Shown one piece after another: positions 1 to 5,485 of a stretch of 5,485 bases of DNA. Position 1 is the stretch's first letter, and every line of letters starts with the position of its first letter. The notes beneath the pieces were generated by a model. It did not search any database and was not told the DNA's origin. It saw nothing but the letters and a program-made list of their open reading frames with translations. The stretch comes from a virus (lineage: Duplodnaviria > Heunggongvirae > Uroviricota > Caudoviricetes): the IMG/VR virus record IMGVR_UViG_2671180669_000009; one strand, 5' to 3'. The position numbers and the translations under genes are program-made.

Positions 1-51
1 CTGCATGACAAAGTCATCGGGCATTATCTGAACATAAAACACTATCAATAA
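1..51 (+). CDS. insB: IS1 transposase InsB, C-terminal fragment (5' end outside window)
   Basis: In-frame translation [16 protein letters not shown] then TAA at 49-51, identical to the C-terminus of the 167-aa InsB ORF at 3064..3567. Confidence 0.8.
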   Translation: MHDKVIGHYLNIKHYQ

Positions 52-66
52 GTTGGAGTCATTACC
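44..66. repeat. IS1 right terminal inverted repeat (about 23 bp)
   Basis: atcaataagttggagtcattacc is the imperfect reverse complement of the left end ggtgatgctgccaacttactgat at 2815-2837. Confidence 0.85.
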
Positions 67-158
67 AAAAAAACCGCCGAAACGGGTTAAGTGCGGGTGC
101 GTTGAGGATGCCTGACACATCAAAGGTGGCGGGAGATTACTCTCCCGCCTGGTCACTC

Positions 159-314
159 TTACTCTCTAGATTCGTAGTCTACGAAAACAGCGACCTCCGT
201 CTGGCCGATTCGGATTCGTACCTCGCAGAGGTCTTTCCTCGTTACCAGTGCCGTCACAATGACGGTTAAACAGATGACGATCAGGGCGATTAACATCGCC
301 TTTTGCTGCTTCAT
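159..314 (-). CDS. hok: Hok/Gef-family type I toxin (51 aa, small membrane peptide)
   Basis: Internal ATG at 314-312 with AGGAG 9 nt upstream. The product MKQQKAMLIALIVICLTVIVTALVTRKDLCEVRIRIGQTEVAVFVDYESRE has a single TM helix followed by the conserved Hok C-terminal region (TRKDLCE..GQTEVA..YES), closely resembling HokC/HokD as I recall them. Confidence 0.85.
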   Translation of the reverse strand: MKQQKAMLIALIVICLTVIVTALVTRKDLCEVRIRIGQTEVAVFVDYESRE

Positions 315-371
315 AGCCTGCTTCTCCTTGCCTTTCGGCACGTAAGAGGCTAACCTACATTTGTGAGACAT
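159..371 (-). CDS. mok: Mok-like overlapping reading frame (70 aa; in-frame N-terminal extension of hok that couples hok translation)
   Basis: The ORF starting at ATG 371-369 (MSHKCRLASYVPKGKEKQA...) runs in frame into hok, as in chromosomal mok/hok loci; weak GAGG about 9 nt upstream. Confidence 0.5.
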   Translation of the reverse strand: MSHKCRLASYVPKGKEKQAMKQQKAMLIALIVICLTVIVTALVTRKDLCEVRIRIGQTEVAVFVDYESRE

Positions 372-420
372 AGATTGGGCCTCAGATTAATGTTAAGCGT
401 CTTGCAGGACGCGTAATGTT
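360..420 (+). ncRNA. sok: Putative Sok-like antisense RNA overlapping the mok start region (boundaries approximate)
   Basis: By analogy with hok/sok loci, where the antisense RNA overlaps the mok translation start. Candidate sigma70 elements TTGCCT (338-343) and TAACCT (361-366) with a 17-nt spacer; hairpin gcgtc-ttgcag-gacgc at 397-412. Not verifiable without expression data. Confidence 0.25.
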
Positions 421-651
421 AACTGGGGCTTTTCTCTGTCTGCCTTACAGTGACATACCCGAGGCAGACAGCCTCAAGCACCCGCAGCAATCTTACCGAC
501 ACCGATAAGAAAACGCTATTTTTTATTGCCAGCACCATCTATCCAGGCTAGTTTATCTGCGTCAGAACGGCGCAATGCGCTCGCCTGAGATACGTTTACT
601 TGCCATGGTAACAACAGGTAACGGCAATTGCTGTTTCTGTTTTGTTTCCTT

Positions 652-690
652 CAAAAACCCCGGACCATCAATCCGGGGTTTTTGTTTGTT
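652..690. terminator. Rho-independent terminator, bidirectional (ends the minus-strand operon that stops at 769)
   Basis: Perfect 7-bp GC-rich stem ccccgga (658-664) / tccgggg (672-678) with a 7-nt loop, flanked by AAAAA (653-657) and TTTTTGTTTGTT (679-690). Confidence 0.75.
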
Positions 691-768
691 AACCCCAACG
701 GCAAATCGAATACACCACCAGCGCCACCGCCATCGCAATTCCTACCGTGGTGAATGCCTCAGGCCAGG

Positions 769-1134
769 TCATTGATTCACCTCCTGCGGTGGTTCCGGTA
801 GCGGCATCCAGTGAGTTGAGCTCTCTACTTCAACGCCGTCTTTGTCCACAAAAGCCATCTTATTCCCGCCACGAGTGGGGCAAAAAACCTTATCCCAGGA
901 ACCGGGGAATACATTCCCGAGATCATCGAGAAGAATCACATCGCAATATTCAGCAGGAACTGCATCACTACAGCTTATCCAGCCAGCCGGAGCTACCGGA
1001 GAGTTGCCAGCCTTACGCATGGCCATTTCCACGATTTCAACCATATCTCCTGGTGGAATTTTACAAAGTTGCCCAATACATTTCTGCTGCCTGGCATATT
1101 CGAGAATGTGCTCCAGTTTGGTTCGATTAATCAT
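769..1134 (-). CDS. Hypothetical prophage protein (121 aa), last gene of the minus-strand operon
   Basis: ATG at 1134-1132 overlaps the TAA of the upstream gene (TAATG), with AAGGGAG upstream; the ORF ends about 90 nt before the terminator. No family recognised from sequence. Confidence 0.6.
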   Translation of the reverse strand: MINRTKLEHILEYARQQKCIGQLCKIPPGDMVEIVEMAMRKAGNSPVAPAGWISCSDAVPAEYCDVILLDDLGNVFPGSWDKVFCPTRGGNKMAFVDKDGVEVESSTHWMPLPEPPQEVNQ

Positions 1135-1799
1135 TATTTATCTCCCTTAAGCATGGCAGCGCGGCAGGCGTTCCAGCCATCAACATAATCAAACGTATTA
1201 CTATCGTTTGGCCCGATTTCATCCGGCACTATCGGCTCTGGTTGGATAGTGACGTTGGCAAAGGCAGCACGCAAACCGGTTTTAATTTCTTCGATTTCAT
1301 CAGAGCCAAGCGATGAATCTGACAGTGCGTGATGGAATGCGTAAGCCATGTCGTCGTTTACTGCAACCGGCACTGCCGGCGCTGCGTAAAGCGGTGTTAT
1401 ATCTGCCCGAAAATCACATGCTTTATGCAGTCGTACCCAACACTCAACTTCCGCTTTGTCAAAATATATAGCAGTGAACGTATTAGATTCCTGGTCAACT
1501 TGAGTAAACGTCACCTTCCACGCTACAGCTACGGCTTTCCATCCATCAGGTTGTCGCATTCGCGGGGCAGCATAAAGCTCATGCATTCCATCAGGCAGCG
1601 AGTGACCCACATACTCACCGAACCCGTCAATACACATGCCCCCATCTTCAACAATGCATTCCGCTACAGGCTCTGCTTCCAGTGATGCCAGAGCGATAAG
1701 CGCCAGTTCACGAATTTCACCGCCGTCTATATCGTCAATATCATCGCGGCCAGAAATGTTAGCCAGCCATTGCAGTCGCTCTTTGGTAATAGTGGTCAT
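1134..1799 (-). CDS. Hypothetical acidic prophage protein (221 aa)
   Basis: ATG at 1799-1797 overlaps the TGA of the HNH gene (ATGA). Long open frame, D/E-rich, with the motif LYAAP occurring twice (aa 75-79 and 137-141). No family recognised. Confidence 0.65.
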   Translation of the reverse strand: MTTITKERLQWLANISGRDDIDDIDGGEIRELALIALASLEAEPVAECIVEDGGMCIDGFGEYVGHSLPDGMHELYAAPRMRQPDGWKAVAVAWKVTFTQVDQESNTFTAIYFDKAEVECWVRLHKACDFRADITPLYAAPAVPVAVNDDMAYAFHHALSDSSLGSDEIEEIKTGLRAAFANVTIQPEPIVPDEIGPNDSNTFDYVDGWNACRAAMLKGDK

Positions 1800-2161
1800 G
1801 CCGTAGCCCCTTCTTGATATTTTTCAAACCAGAACACAACCGGGTCAGATTTCATTTCAACCAATCCCATACGAACCAGCGCTTTGCCTTTCCCGGACGC
1901 AAGGAATTCACGACGACCATCACTGATAATTCGTCGATAATCTTCCAGGCTACTGCAATGCTTGTGCAGATTGCATGGGTGGCATGCTGGTACCATGTTG
2001 GATATATCGTCACGTTCCTGGTGAAGCATATTTCCATCAAAACGAATGACCGGTTTTACATGGTCTGCATGCCACTTTTCGCCAAGTTCGCAGCCGCAAT
2101 AAGCGCAGCGACCACCGAACTTCATGCGCAGTTCTGCACGTTGTTTTTTCGTCAGTGCCAT
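1796..2161 (-). CDS. HNH endonuclease (121 aa, phage-type small HNH nuclease)
   Basis: MALTKKQRAELRMKFGGRCAYCGCEL..WHADHVKP..NMVPACHPCNLHK carries the CxxC / HxDH / N / CxxC-H signature. Start chosen at ATG 2161-2159 with AAGGAAA upstream; the ORF track's longer version from 2251 adds 30 residues that do not look like protein. Confidence 0.8.
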   Translation of the reverse strand: MALTKKQRAELRMKFGGRCAYCGCELGEKWHADHVKPVIRFDGNMLHQERDDISNMVPACHPCNLHKHCSSLEDYRRIISDGRREFLASGKGKALVRMGLVEMKSDPVVFWFEKYQEGATA

Positions 2162-2162
2162 A

Positions 2163-2381
2163 TCAGCTTTCCTTATACGGATTAATTTTATTGTGCAGTG
2201 TGTTGAATGACGCCCATACCACGTCGTTATACAATTCAATAACTGGCTCAATTATTTTTCCGATTATCCAGACAAAAATTAGCGGGGATATCGGTGTCAT
2301 CAACACGATAAACAGAATGAGAAACAGGAATTCTGTTGTTCTACTCTTTCGCGGATATTTTTTTCTAAATAATGTAACCAT
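2163..2381 (-). CDS. Possible small membrane protein (72 aa; basic N-terminus then one hydrophobic helix)
   Basis: MVTLFRKKYPRKSRTTEFLFLILFIVLMTPISPLIFVWIIGKII...; its TGA (2165-2163) is one base from the HNH ATG (2161), giving a stop-N-ATG junction. Weak RBS and a GC hairpin directly upstream, so the start is uncertain. Confidence 0.35.
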   Translation of the reverse strand: MVTLFRKKYPRKSRTTEFLFLILFIVLMTPISPLIFVWIIGKIIEPVIELYNDVVWASFNTLHNKINPYKES

Positions 2382-2473
2382 TCATTACCGCCCTTTCGGG
2401 CGGTCTCCTGATGATTTGAGGGTGCAGAAATCCCTCCGGTTAAGGATTAAATTTTTAACAGTGCTAAATTTAA

Positions 2474-2814
2474 TTATTCAGTTCTGGATTTTGTCGCCCT
2501 GCGTATCCGCGCTTTCGCGTTACGCTCAATCTGTATCAGCTTTTCTATATTTCTCCGCCTTTCCTGTTCCTCCTGGCGCAATAGCCTTACATCATCTGCC
2601 AGTCTGGTTTCTCTTTTTGCCACAGAGAGCATCCAGTCAAACGGCTCCACAACCGCACCGCAGATTTTACAGCGGACCTGACGCTCTTTTTCGTCAACCC
2701 GTACAGAGGCGTGATGGCAATATGGTCTTTCCGATGGCTCATAAAGAAAATTAACCTGATTACGTGGGTCATCCTCTTTTACCGGAAATAAAACGATATT
2801 GCTTAACTCATCTT
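2474..2814 (-). pseudogene. 3' portion of an IS1-interrupted ORF (zinc-ribbon-like protein, about 118 aa when reconstructed)
   Basis: Open frame ...DDPRNQVNFLYEPSERPYCHHASVRVDEKERQVRCKICGAVVEPFDWMLSVAKRETRLADDVRLLRQEEQERRRNIEKLIQIERNAKARIRRATKSRTE* ends at TAA 2476-2474 and is cut at 2814 by the IS1 left end; the matching 5' part with ATG and RBS is at 3584-3705. Confidence 0.6.
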
Positions 2815-2837
2815 GGTGATGCTGCCAACTTACTGAT
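2815..2837. repeat. IS1 left terminal inverted repeat
   Basis: ggtgatgctgccaacttactgat, imperfect inverted match to the IS1 right end seen at 44-66. Confidence 0.85.
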
Positions 2838-2869
2838 TTAGTGTATGATGGTGTTTTTGAGGTGCTCCA

Positions 2870-3145
2870 GTGGCTTCTGTTTCTATCAGCTGTCCCTCCT
2901 GTTCAGCTACTGACGGGGTGGTGCGTAACGGCAAAAGCACTGCCGGACATCAGCGCTATCTCTGCTCTCACTGCCGTAAAACATGGCAACTGCAGTTCAC
3001 TTACACCGCTTCTCAACCCGGTACGCACCAGAAAATCATTGATATGGCCATGAATGGCGTTGGATGCCGGGCAACTGCACGCATTATGGGCGTTGGCCTC
3101 AACACGATTTTACGTCACTTAAAAAACTCAGGCCGCAGTCGGTAA
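2870..3145 (+). CDS. insA: IS1 InsA (91 aa; zinc-finger/HTH transposition regulator)
   Basis: [39 protein letters not shown]...[12 protein letters not shown] matches the InsA sequence as I recall it. Confidence 0.95.
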
Positions 3146-3567
3146 CCTCGCGCATACAGCCGGGCAGTGACGTCATCGTCTGCGCGGAAATGGACGAACA
3201 GTGGGGCTATGTCGGGGCTAAATCGCGCCAGCGCTGGCTGTTTTACGCGTATGACAGTCTCCGGAAGACGGTTGTTGCGCACGTATTCGGTGAACGCACT
3301 ATGGCGACGCTGGGGCGTCTTATGAGCCTGCTGTCACCCTTTGACGTGGTGATATGGATGACGGATGGCTGGCCGCTGTATGAATCCCGCCTGAAGGGAA
3401 AGCTGCACGTAATCAGCAAGCGATATACGCAGCGAATTGAGCGGCATAACCTGAATCTGAGGCAGCACCTGGCACGGCTGGGACGGAAGTCGCTGTCGTT
3501 CTCAAAATCGGTGGAGCTGCATGACAAAGTCATCGGGCATTATCTGAACATAAAACACTATCAATAA
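3064..3567 (+). CDS. insB: IS1 InsB reading frame (167 aa; expressed as the InsAB' transposase via a -1 frameshift)
   Basis: [53 protein letters not shown]...HYLNIKHYQ, overlapping the 3' end of insA in the -1 frame. Confidence 0.9.
3119..3127 (+). promoter_or_regulatory. IS1 programmed -1 ribosomal frameshift motif (A6C slippery site) between insA and insB'
   Basis: TTAAAAAAC lies in the insA/insB overlap just before the insA stop; established IS1 biology. Confidence 0.7.
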
Positions 3568-3572
3568 GTTGG

Positions 3573-3583
3573 NNNNNNNNNNN
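3573..3583. other. Assembly gap (11 N)
   Basis: Run of n characters directly after the IS1 right-end sequence. Confidence 1.
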
Positions 3584-3689
3584 GCGTGATGGCAATATGG
3601 TCTTTCCGATGGCTCATAAAGAAAATTAACCTGATTACGAGGGTCATCCTCTTTTACCGGAAATAAAACGATATTGCTTAACTCATCTT
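3584..3689. repeat. 106-bp duplicate of 2709..2814 (the flank just left of the IS1), with one mismatch (2765 t vs 3640 a)
   Basis: Direct base-by-base comparison; the copy begins immediately after the N gap. Confidence 0.95.
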
Positions 3690-3705
3690 CTGGTTTTATT
3701 TCCAT
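3584..3705 (-). pseudogene. 5' portion of the zinc-ribbon ORF (start codon plus first ~40 codons); continues into the duplicated flank
   Basis: ATG at 3705-3703 preceded by AAGGAGAGGAG; MEIKPEDELSNIVLFPVKEDDPRNQVNFLYEPSERPYCHHA... is in frame with the 3' portion at 2474..2814 once the duplicate is aligned. Confidence 0.5.
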
Positions 3706-3762
3706 GCTCCTCTCCTTTGATGCGAATGCCAGCGGTAATTGAAGCCTGATAGCTAATTTCAT

Positions 3763-4185
3763 TCACAGTATCGCCTCCTGAAAATTACCCTGATAGAAAG
3801 CCAGTACACGCTGCATAGCTTCGCTCTTCCGGCACTCGCGACAGATTATATTCAGGCGCCTGTCGTAGCGGCGTATTTCTCCGTCAGGTAATGACCAGAT
3901 AAGGTCCGGATCAACAACAACCGGTTTCCTCACCTTTACTCTCGAGAGTTTTTTGCGGGCGCTTTGCCAGTCCTTGCGAGCCTGTTCAGACGGGAATAAG
4001 CCGTAGCCAGAATTATATACATCACCACTTGCGACCAGTTCTATGCATAAGCGACCGACAGACGCACGACTGATACCTGTTTCATCTGACAACTGCCGAA
4101 TCGTGACCCGACCGTCCTGATGCACGAGTTCCACAATTCGCGTCTTCAGTTCTTCCCGCTGTTCGGGAGTAAAAGGTTTCGCCAT
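3763..4185 (-). CDS. Hypothetical prophage protein with N-terminal helix-turn-helix / winged-helix-like region (140 aa)
   Basis: ATG at 4185-4183 with AGGAGG 6 nt upstream, 14 nt after the dnaC-like stop. Segment VTIRQLSDETGISRASVGRLCIEL resembles an HTH; basic C-terminal half. Confidence 0.75.
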   Translation of the reverse strand: MAKPFTPEQREELKTRIVELVHQDGRVTIRQLSDETGISRASVGRLCIELVASGDVYNSGYGLFPSEQARKDWQSARKKLSRVKVRKPVVVDPDLIWSLPDGEIRRYDRRLNIICRECRKSEAMQRVLAFYQGNFQEAIL

Positions 4186-4199
4186 AAATCCTCCTGAAA

Positions 4200-4946
4200 C
4201 TACTTAACAACCCTCGAATGGCTAACATTCGGACGCCAGCTCTCCCAGTTAAAATTCACCCAGCGCCCGCCGTTCATGACCATGCGATCCATCACCCGCT
4301 CGCCGAGCAATGTTTTCATCACCTCATAGTTCAGGTTTGTCAGCATCCCCACGCTGCGCATCGACGCTGTCCGGCGATCAACAATCTGGTGCAGCACCAC
4401 CTGCTCGTTTTTCGTCTCGCGCTGAATGCCAATTTCATCAAGAACCAGCAGATCCACTTCGCACAGCTCCCGCAAAAATTTTTCGCCTGACTGCCCGTCG
4501 TCATAGCTGGCGTGCAGGGCGCTCATAACATCAGCCACGGTAACCACAATCACTGTCTGACCGTCTTTCAGCAGGCGATTCCCGATAGCTGCCGCTAAGT
4601 GATTCTTCCCGGTACCAGGTTTTCCGCTGAACGCAAAATTTGTACACCCGGTCATCAGTTCATCGGCGATGGATTTCGCCTGGCTTAACGCGTATCGCTG
4701 GCCGTCGTTCTGCACCTGGTAATTCGCAAACGAGCATTTACGGTGCAACGGCTGGATGCCTGAGCGATTCAGAATTTTTTCCACCCGCAACTGGCGATTC
4801 AGGCGGTTGATCTCCTCGCTACGTTTCTGGCCTTCAGCAAGTTGCCACTCGCGCCACTCCGCTACCGTTCTGAATGGGGCGGTTACATGTGGCGGGGTCA
4901 GTCGGCGGATGCGTTCCAGAACGCCGCCTGTCGCAATATTTTTCAT
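4200..4946 (-). CDS. DnaC-like replicative helicase loader (AAA+ ATPase, 248 aa), prophage paralog
   Basis: Walker A FSGKPGTGKNHLAAAIG, Walker B DLLVLDEIG, and MLTNLNYEVMKTLLGERVMDRM; collinear and roughly half-identical to E. coli DnaC as I recall it (e.g. RSGIQPLHRKCSFANY vs RSGIRPLHQNCSFENY). Confidence 0.92.
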   Translation of the reverse strand: MKNIATGGVLERIRRLTPPHVTAPFRTVAEWREWQLAEGQKRSEEINRLNRQLRVEKILNRSGIQPLHRKCSFANYQVQNDGQRYALSQAKSIADELMTGCTNFAFSGKPGTGKNHLAAAIGNRLLKDGQTVIVVTVADVMSALHASYDDGQSGEKFLRELCEVDLLVLDEIGIQRETKNEQVVLHQIVDRRTASMRSVGMLTNLNYEVMKTLLGERVMDRMVMNGGRWVNFNWESWRPNVSHSRVVK

Positions 4947-4952
4947 GGTCCG

Positions 4953-5431
4953 TTACCCCCTGAAGCCTGGCGGGATCGCACTGTCCGGCAACGAGACGGT
5001 GTTAACCTGTCGGAGCAACGTCTCAGGCCGAACACCTTTCGGCGCGAACAGGCCCTGGTATTCATTGGCGATGCTGTGTCGAATCACCTGCTCAGGTGTA
5101 AAACCCTGCTGACGGAATTTTTCCAGTTCCCGTATCGCCCCGTTAGCGCCCTGCTCCGTTCGAATCGGTTTTCGCAATGCCTGTCTGAACCGGACCCACT
5201 CATGCCAGAGTGTTTCCGGCAACCAATCGGGCAGCTCAATAGCCTCCGGCTCGAATTTTTTAGACGCTCGTTTTTGGCGAGGGGGAGATCAGTATTTAGA
5301 TCTTCCTCTTCCTCTTCCTCTTCCTCTGGTAACGCTTTTTGATCCGTTTGTGTAACGCTGGCAGCGTTACCTTTTCGTTTCAGTTCGCGTATTTTTGTTA
5401 CTCGCTCGTTTGTAACTGAAGTGGTCAACAA
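4953..5431 (-). pseudogene. DnaT-like primosomal protein gene with an apparent frameshift (N-terminal frame 5431..5084, C-terminal DnaT-like frame 4953..5288)
   Basis: C-terminal frame ends ...LRQVNTVSLPDSAIPPGFRG*, resembling the DnaT C-terminus, and sits directly upstream of the dnaC-like gene as in the chromosomal dnaT-dnaC pair. The N-terminal frame (TTG start, basic region, E8 tract) is offset by one base; the two join cleanly if the G5 run at 5281-5285 were G6. Confidence 0.55.
5301..5327. repeat. Hexanucleotide tandem repeat (tcttcc) x4.5, encoding a poly-Glu (E8) tract on the minus strand
   Basis: tcttcctcttcctcttcctcttcctct read directly; in frame with the N-terminal part of the DnaT-like ORF. 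Confidence 0.9.
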
Positions 5432-5485
5432 AAACTGGCCACCGAGTTAGAGTTTTTCCAGTATCGATTTTCCGATTCGTTTGGG

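Follow-up and report, generated by a model that had tools for sequence, protein, structure and literature searches.

The hok/sok locus is the textbook type I toxin-antitoxin system. Homologues of its toxin, Hok, are reported from almost 80% of the genomes of Enterobacteriaceae, with enrichment in prophages (bioRxiv 10.1101/2025.08.07.668861). The system of plasmid R1, hok/sok (parB), is plasmid-borne and has a role in post-segregational killing. Processing of the mRNA from its 3' end, cleavage of the Sok duplex by RNase III, and toxicity of Hok are known for the homologues R1 hok/sok (PMC9841398) and hokW-sokW (PMC8621323), and a 3' hairpin has been described as protecting the truncated R1 mRNA (PMC9841398). 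[quoted passage not shown] In Escherichia coli K-12, hokC (gef) has an in-frame mokC and an annotated sokC, and hokD (relF) lies in Qin, a cryptic lambdoid prophage.

Here we describe a member of this family in a phage-derived stretch of 5,485 nucleotides, the whole of which we call the window. With a probability of about 0.9, positions 67 to ~495 on the minus strand carry the whole of a type I toxin-antitoxin cassette, hok/mok/sok, that belongs to the prophage hokW/hokD subgroup. A preliminary description of the window had placed a hok/mok/sok-type locus at 159-480. That identification is borne out, with Pfam, Rfam, the Sok gene and the mRNA fold-back all in agreement, but the functional unit is larger than the proposed interval, with its -10 box at 495-490 and a 3' untranslated region (UTR) at 158-67.

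Results

The cassette is an annotated copy of a well-studied toxin-antitoxin family, and its nearest relative has been characterized experimentally. By exact protein look-up, the 51-aa and 70-aa proteins that it encodes are present in public databases on at least 1000 contigs, under the labels 'Hok/Gef family protein [Shigella sonnei]', 'MULTISPECIES: Hok/Gef family protein [Shigella]' and 'type I toxin-antitoxin system Hok family toxin [Shigella sonnei]'. Complete chromosomes with an exact match to the locus have the same neighbors and a full 768-bp IS1 at the identical junction; judging by the protein labels, their host would be S. sonnei.

Among characterized systems, the closest is hokW-sokW (with mokW), with 92.7% DNA identity over ~405 nt. 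The two loci share an in-frame 70-aa Mok, identical Sok promoter hexamers, the same Sok hairpin, and carriage by a lambdoid prophage. They differ at several positions in the 5' tail of Sok and the N-terminus of Mok (MSHK... versus MLNT...), at the C-terminus of Hok (...ESRE versus ...ESEK in HokW), in a T36I substitution in the window copy, and in the terminator. The similarity runs from the hok -10 box to a few bases beyond the 3' element fbi, with unrelated flanks on both sides, and the ~420-bp unit therefore behaves as a cassette that has been placed variously among phages. On the 933W map it is close to the right end of the genome, and in the window it lies between replication genes and a Q-like antiterminator.

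The architecture is also that of R1 hok/sok, including the elements tac, ucb, mok Shine-Dalgarno, dcb, fbi and Sok and the same switch in mRNA folding (PMC9841398), although the R1 toxin is far more distant in sequence (see below). The K-12 hokC locus resembles it in the toxin and in its in-frame mokC and annotated sokC.

The setting of the cassette is the nin-like region of a lambdoid prophage that, from the genome comparisons, is decayed and riddled with IS elements. The nearest E. coli copy, in strain FDAARGOS_944, is 99.6% identical over 694 nt and free of IS1 at the junction. In that strain the order is replication genes, DUF977, DUF4014, HNH, DUF551, hok, DUF1367, YbcO-like, Q-like antiterminator, tRNAs, holin, and lysozyme. 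Comparison with related and complete genomes showed that several IS elements break the host prophage.

Hok is nested in frame within Mok

The reading frames and ribosome-binding sites of the cassette are as follows.

159-371, minus strand: mok leader ORF of 70 aa that shares the hok frame; mokW (933W) and mokC (K-12) are annotated alike
159-314, minus strand: hok coding sequence, 51 aa, stop codon included, from the internal ATG at 314 (Pfam, alignment)
324-329, minus strand: hok Shine-Dalgarno AAGGAG, 9 nt upstream of the hok ATG
380-383, minus strand: mok Shine-Dalgarno GAGG, paired with ucb in the full-length fold

The nesting of a 51-aa Hok in a 70-aa Mok and the good ribosome-binding site for Hok, both read from the sequence in the preliminary description, were confirmed. 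The 70-aa protein is MSHKCRLASYVPKGKEKQA-MKQQKAM..., in which the hok start follows the Mok-specific part without a change of frame. In K-12, the annotation puts mokB and hokB in different frames, whereas the mok of the window, like mokC and mokW, extends hok in frame at the N-terminus; the relation between the two frames therefore varies within the family.

The encoded protein is a member of the Hok family. The Pfam profile HOK_GEF (PF01848) scored 76 bits against a cut-off of 22, with the entire profile covered by the 70-aa protein. NCBIfam gave sub-threshold Hok matches only, its Hok subfamily model scoring 51.7 bits, under the cut-off of 73. By alignment, Hok is 94% identical to HokW, 90% to HokD, 76% to HokC, 39% to R1 Hok, 36% to HokA, 35% to HokB and 32% to HokE. 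The residues C15, T17, L29, E31 and E40, at columns that are invariant among eight reference Hoks, are all kept.

The predicted hok mRNA has a complete leader and 3' end

We placed +1 at 483 by homology with the leaders of R1, hokB, hokC and hokE and with the start of the Rfam model, and set the 3' end at the U-run 73-67, giving a predicted mRNA of 417 nt with these elements.

513-518, minus strand: hok promoter -35 TAGCGT, weak (sequence inspection)
490-495, minus strand: hok promoter -10 TAAGAT, in agreement with TANNNT and 6 nt ahead of +1, positioned as in R1, hokC and hokE
472-483, minus strand: tac element at the mRNA 5' end (Rfam model start; homologous to the leader starts of R1, hokB, hokC and hokE)
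423-433, minus strand: ucb (upstream complementary box, or anti-SD), whose partner is the mok Shine-Dalgarno region when the mRNA is full-length and tac once it is truncated (predicted folds)
346-351, minus strand: dcb (downstream complementary box) AGCCUC, paired with the mok Shine-Dalgarno in the active form (Rfam consensus structure)
128-149, minus strand: GC-rich 3' hairpin, which would form the protective end of the processed mRNA (folds and 25-locus alignment; role from R1)
95-107, minus strand: fbi (fold-back inhibitory element) CCUCAACGCACCC, paired with mRNA nt 1-12 in the minimum free energy (MFE) and centroid folds
67-86, minus strand: intrinsic terminator of the hok mRNA, a 4-bp stem with a UUCG loop (86-74) and U7 (73-67) (folds; homologue of the hokD terminator)

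The counterparts of the -10 box at the equivalent position are TATAAT in hokC, TAAGAT in hokE, and TATGAT in R1, the last of which has been validated experimentally (PMC9841398). A generic sigma-70 promoter scan of positions 1-800 gave no site at threshold, with the hok and Sok promoters below it, and both were therefore assigned by homology to validated ones. The terminator stem, at only 4 bp, is weaker than that of hokD.

The leader is recognized along its whole length by Rfam. RF01794 matches 483-309 on the minus strand (118.1 bits, threshold 59, E = 2.5e-27) over model positions 1-157 of 157. Although this family is named 'sok', its match here spans the hok mRNA leader from the 5' end to the hok start codon. 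The consensus includes the tac-ucb stem, the Sok target hairpin and the stem between the mok Shine-Dalgarno and dcb, and the leader thus has the structure expected of a hok mRNA.

The full-length mRNA is predicted to fold back on itself. The predicted structure has an energy of -163 kcal/mol (z = -5.87), and none of 100 dinucleotide shuffles was as stable. In both the MFE and the centroid fold, tac at 483-472 (nt 1-12) pairs with fbi at 107-95 (nt 377-389) through 12 bp with one bulged C, and ucb at 433-423 masks the mok Shine-Dalgarno region (383-380) in the predicted full-length fold. We modeled the truncated form by trimming the 3' end to just beyond the hairpin 149-128, as for the R1 hok mRNA, and found that the 5' end switched to ucb (nt 53-59). 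In these models, the switch matches the published change of the R1 mRNA from a closed full-length to an open truncated form (PMC9841398). Folding of the mRNA, which the preliminary description had suggested as a check, thus gave the 5'/3' fold-back, the hidden mok Shine-Dalgarno, and the tac-ucb pairing of the trimmed form.

The fold-back is conserved and covaries

We scanned one genome per species with four close Hok sequences and obtained 54 related loci. In the intact loci examined, the best complement of leader nt 1-12/13 sits 44-55 nt 3' of the hok stop codon; a hokC copy disrupted by IS186 has no fbi complement. The covariation alignment comprised 25 distinct loci from Escherichia, Kluyvera, Pseudocitrobacter, Photorhabdus and Pantoea, together with hokB and R1, a set that leans to the HokC/D/W subgroup because the four close sequences served as queries.

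Over the tac-fbi helix and the 3' hairpin, 93% of the cells in these 25 loci are standard pairs, versus 47-58% when the partner is slid by 1-3 columns. Pair 4/102 is U-A in 20 of the 25 loci, C-G in the other 5, and unpaired in none, and the observed covariation score was reached by 0 of 500 shuffles. Several of the cells counted as unpaired in helix 7-12 are register shifts, because MAFFT left no gap where the bulged C is absent. For the 3' hairpin (128-149), 92% of cells are paired and three pairs are changed on both sides. Energies of cognate versus non-cognate tac/fbi duplexes separated only the minority tac classes, by 4-10 kcal/mol; this test is weak because, through G-U wobble, fbi of the GCGCC type also accepts the common GGGUGC class, and we used pair counts instead. 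The possibility raised at the outset that the fold-back elements might not be conserved is answered by these data, as tac-fbi is kept and covaries across the 25 loci.

A Sok gene overlaps the mok start

At the sequence level, a cis-encoded Sok gene that overlaps the start of mok is present.

363-433, plus strand: Sok antisense RNA, ~71 nt (mapped from the 933W sokW feature; predicted fold)
328-356, plus strand: Sok promoter, with -35 TTGCCT at 328-333, a 17-nt spacer, and -10 TAACCT at 351-356; both hexamers are those of sokW

The same -10 TAACCT is the element of sokW that Takada et al. mutated in their promoter-less construct (primers YO-421/422; PMC8621323). The predicted fold of Sok (-29.2 kcal/mol) has a free 5' tail of 14 nt, a long hairpin, and a U-tail. 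The 5' tail is antisense to the mok start; several of its positions deviate from sokW, which may curb cross-talk among paralogous loci.

Proposed mechanism

The ORFs, the RNA elements, their predicted pairing and their conservation are shown above; by homology with R1 hok/sok and hokW-sokW, the cassette would be transcribed, processed and toxic in the following way. A weak constitutive promoter (-10 at 495-490) would yield an mRNA of ~417 nt, from 483 to 67. In the full-length mRNA, 5' tac would pair with 3' fbi and ucb would mask the mok Shine-Dalgarno, so that the mRNA would be neither translated nor bound by Sok. Slow 3' trimming to the hairpin 149-128 would take off fbi, and tac would then pair with ucb, exposing the mok Shine-Dalgarno and the Sok target. 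An abundant, unstable Sok RNA (363-433, plus strand) would pair across the mok start, and RNase III would cut the duplex. On loss of Sok, translation of mok would couple to that of hok, and the 51-aa Hok would insert into the inner membrane and collapse the membrane.

T36I and Tyr47 may bear on the activity of the toxin

Two sites within the hok coding sequence may bear on whether the toxin is active.

207-209, minus strand: codon 36, ATC (Ile) in place of the ACC (Thr) of its close relatives (aligned to FDAARGOS_944 and 933W)
171-177, minus strand: CUACGAA around the Tyr47 codon (176-174), a candidate TadA A-to-I editing motif, Tyr47 to Cys

The preliminary description held that the toxin may still be functional. 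As far as the cis elements go, all of which are intact, this stands, and it is slightly weakened by T36I, a lineage-specific change that could, from the alignment, attenuate Hok. Serious attenuation of the toxin seems unlikely. The reading that competes best with a working cassette is that the locus is structurally complete but a disabled relic, in which T36I, fixed in S. sonnei and perhaps aided by the weak terminator, has detoxified Hok and left neutral prophage debris. T36I is one of only three differences from the FDAARGOS_944 copy in 694 bases and the sole non-synonymous change in hok, and it strikes a polar position in the periplasmic part of Hok that is Thr or Ser in all full-length close homologues examined; the host prophage is broken by several IS elements, and the chromosomal hok loci of K-12 are widely considered inactive (PMC12214031). 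However, position 36 varies across the wider family, where it is always polar but may be Asp (R1 Hok and HokB), Gln (HokA) or Glu (HokE), and toxicity was seen for 42 of the 45 diverse Hok homologues assayed in one study (bioRxiv 10.1101/2025.08.07.668861). The regulatory elements, Sok among them, are all intact, which fits continued selection, though recent acquisition could also explain the close similarity to other copies. On balance, we consider a disabled relic improbable and prefer the reading of an intact cassette.

Toxicity may also depend on editing of the mRNA. In the full-length MFE fold, a 4-bp stem presents CUACGAA as a 7-nt loop, and we take this sequence to be that of the anticodon loop in tRNA-Arg(ACG). 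All Tyr-type hok loci examined keep UACGAA, whereas Cys is encoded at this position in HokA and HokB. TadA is reported to edit hokC/D/E by A-to-I conversion, changing Tyr to Cys, and this is needed for a disulfide (PMC12214031). As the Tyr47 motif is the editing site of hokC/D/E, toxicity of the Hok described here may likewise need editing at Tyr47.

IS1 abuts the hok terminator and spares the transcript

1-66, plus strand: right end of IS1 (3' end of insB and terminal inverted repeat), convergent with hok; its first 56 bases (1-56) recur without mismatch at 3517-3572, where the complete IS1 copy (2817-3572) ends

At the junction, 66/67, the T-run of the hok terminator gives way directly to IS1, and the sequence that precedes IS1 there is CGGCGGTTTTTTT in both the window and the complete genomes. 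Of the eight T that run into an A/T-rich spacer in the IS1-free copy, the copy next to IS1 retains seven. Because IS1 starts beyond the U-run, the transcript retains fbi, the terminator hairpin and seven U. IS1 had been noted to abut the 3' UTR at 66/67 and leave the coding region intact; we find that it spares the whole transcript as well. The locus is thus outside the class of hok loci in which an IS inside the unit has removed fbi or the leader (K-12 hokA, hokC and hokE). In K-12 hokC and hokE, IS186 interrupts the 3' hairpin 18-19 nt past the stop codon, and fbi has been removed, whereas the IS1 of the window removes nothing.

Comparison with the IS1-free FDAARGOS_944 and with the complete genomes revealed no 9-bp target duplication at the IS1 junction, and ~135 bp of the A/T-rich spacer of FDAARGOS_944 is absent beside IS1. 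Together, these features argue against a simple insertion and for either a deletion next to IS1 or recombination of two IS1 copies. In other E. coli strains, independent IS1 copies lie in the same orientation 5 nt and ~130 nt downstream of other hokD-type terminators, and the A/T-rich region 3' of hok therefore looks like a recurrent IS1 target.

It is very doubtful that IS1 nevertheless affects the locus through readout from insAB, antisense to the hok 3' UTR and fbi, that alters the stability or activation of the mRNA. The insB gene ends at 53 on the plus strand, aimed at the hok 3' end, and no plus-strand terminator is predicted between IS1 and hok. Against such an effect, a promoter scan and inspection of 52-81 found no outward or hybrid promoter at the IS1 end (a candidate TTGGAG at 52-57 was rejected, as it has no -10 partner), and the varied distances of IS1 from other hokD-type loci suggest a neutral A/T-rich target.

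The cassette stands apart from relBE and from the upstream phage genes

The locus was proposed to be a stand-alone hok, unlike hokD, and we agree. The window contains no relB or relE ORF; upstream of hok there is non-coding DNA at 484-768 and then a DUF551 phage gene. K-12 hokD is directly after relBE and lacks tac, ucb, mok and sok, all of which the window locus has, and it shares with the window locus only ~17 nt upstream of the ATG, indicating that its leader, mok and sok are gone.

652-684, strand not assigned: strong 13-bp hairpin flanked by A-runs and T-runs, a probable bidirectional terminator (scored on the plus strand; minus-strand activity would follow from the sequence)

Lying between the DUF551 gene and the hok promoter, this hairpin probably insulates hok. 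Hence, even though its Hok and its homologous 3' hairpin, fbi and terminator tie the locus to hokD, the idea that it is a hokD/relF-type remnant driven by an upstream operon, as in K-12 Qin, rather than by its own mok/sok control, is refuted by the absence of relBE, the complete leader with tac, ucb, mok, dcb and the Sok gene, and the terminator-like hairpin that parts hok from the upstream phage genes, leaving it next to no probability.

Weak Rfam matches at 529-690 (STnc30, PsrR1, His_leader and others) are far below thresholds, reflect the hairpin 652-684 only, and were discarded. The spacer 484-768 is far rarer than hok: at least 80% of 67-760 is covered in 26 of 5426 E. coli genomes, with a partial match in 4729.

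Other features of the window

The window looks like two draft contigs, 1-3572 and 3586-5485, joined by 13 N (3573-3585). Bases 1-3572 start and finish with the identical 56 nt of IS1. The part after the N-run is only ~90% identical to the region adjacent to the locus in complete genomes and probably derives from a paralogous prophage. A 106-nt direct repeat (99% identical; 2709-2814 and 3584-3689) flanks the second IS1 copy at 2817-3572 and represents a small phage gene present twice, with one copy interrupted by IS1; in FDAARGOS_944 the gene product has 118 aa. The length of the repeat greatly exceeds that of an IS1 target duplication, which we rejected as its origin, and the repeat most likely arises from the contig join or from paralogous prophages. 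Neither Pfam nor NCBIfam gave a match for the phage ORFs at 1134-1799 (minus strand, 221 aa) and 4953-5222 (minus strand, 89 aa); in related prophages the 221-aa protein is conserved beside the HNH and DUF551 genes.

Discussion

Because several IS elements break the prophage, this locus is unlikely to act in phage release, the role proposed for hokW-sokW. Stabilization of the region or abortive-infection-type defense would be the usual alternatives. Chromosomal hok loci that were tested did not mediate post-segregational killing, according to work cited in bioRxiv 10.1101/2025.08.07.668861.

The significance of the cassette beyond its annotation is small. It does offer a natural contrast, in that IS1 here spares every hok regulatory element and IS186 cuts off fbi in K-12 hokC and hokE, and the T36I copy is usable as a test allele for work on the structure and function of Hok. 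We would give poor odds to a bolder proposal, in which the T36I found under S. sonnei labels is a lineage-specific attenuation or retuning of Hok and the ~135-bp loss stops at the U-run because deletions that reach fbi are counter-selected. If that were true, a 'domesticated' prophage hok/sok would still be under selection in a host-restricted pathogen.
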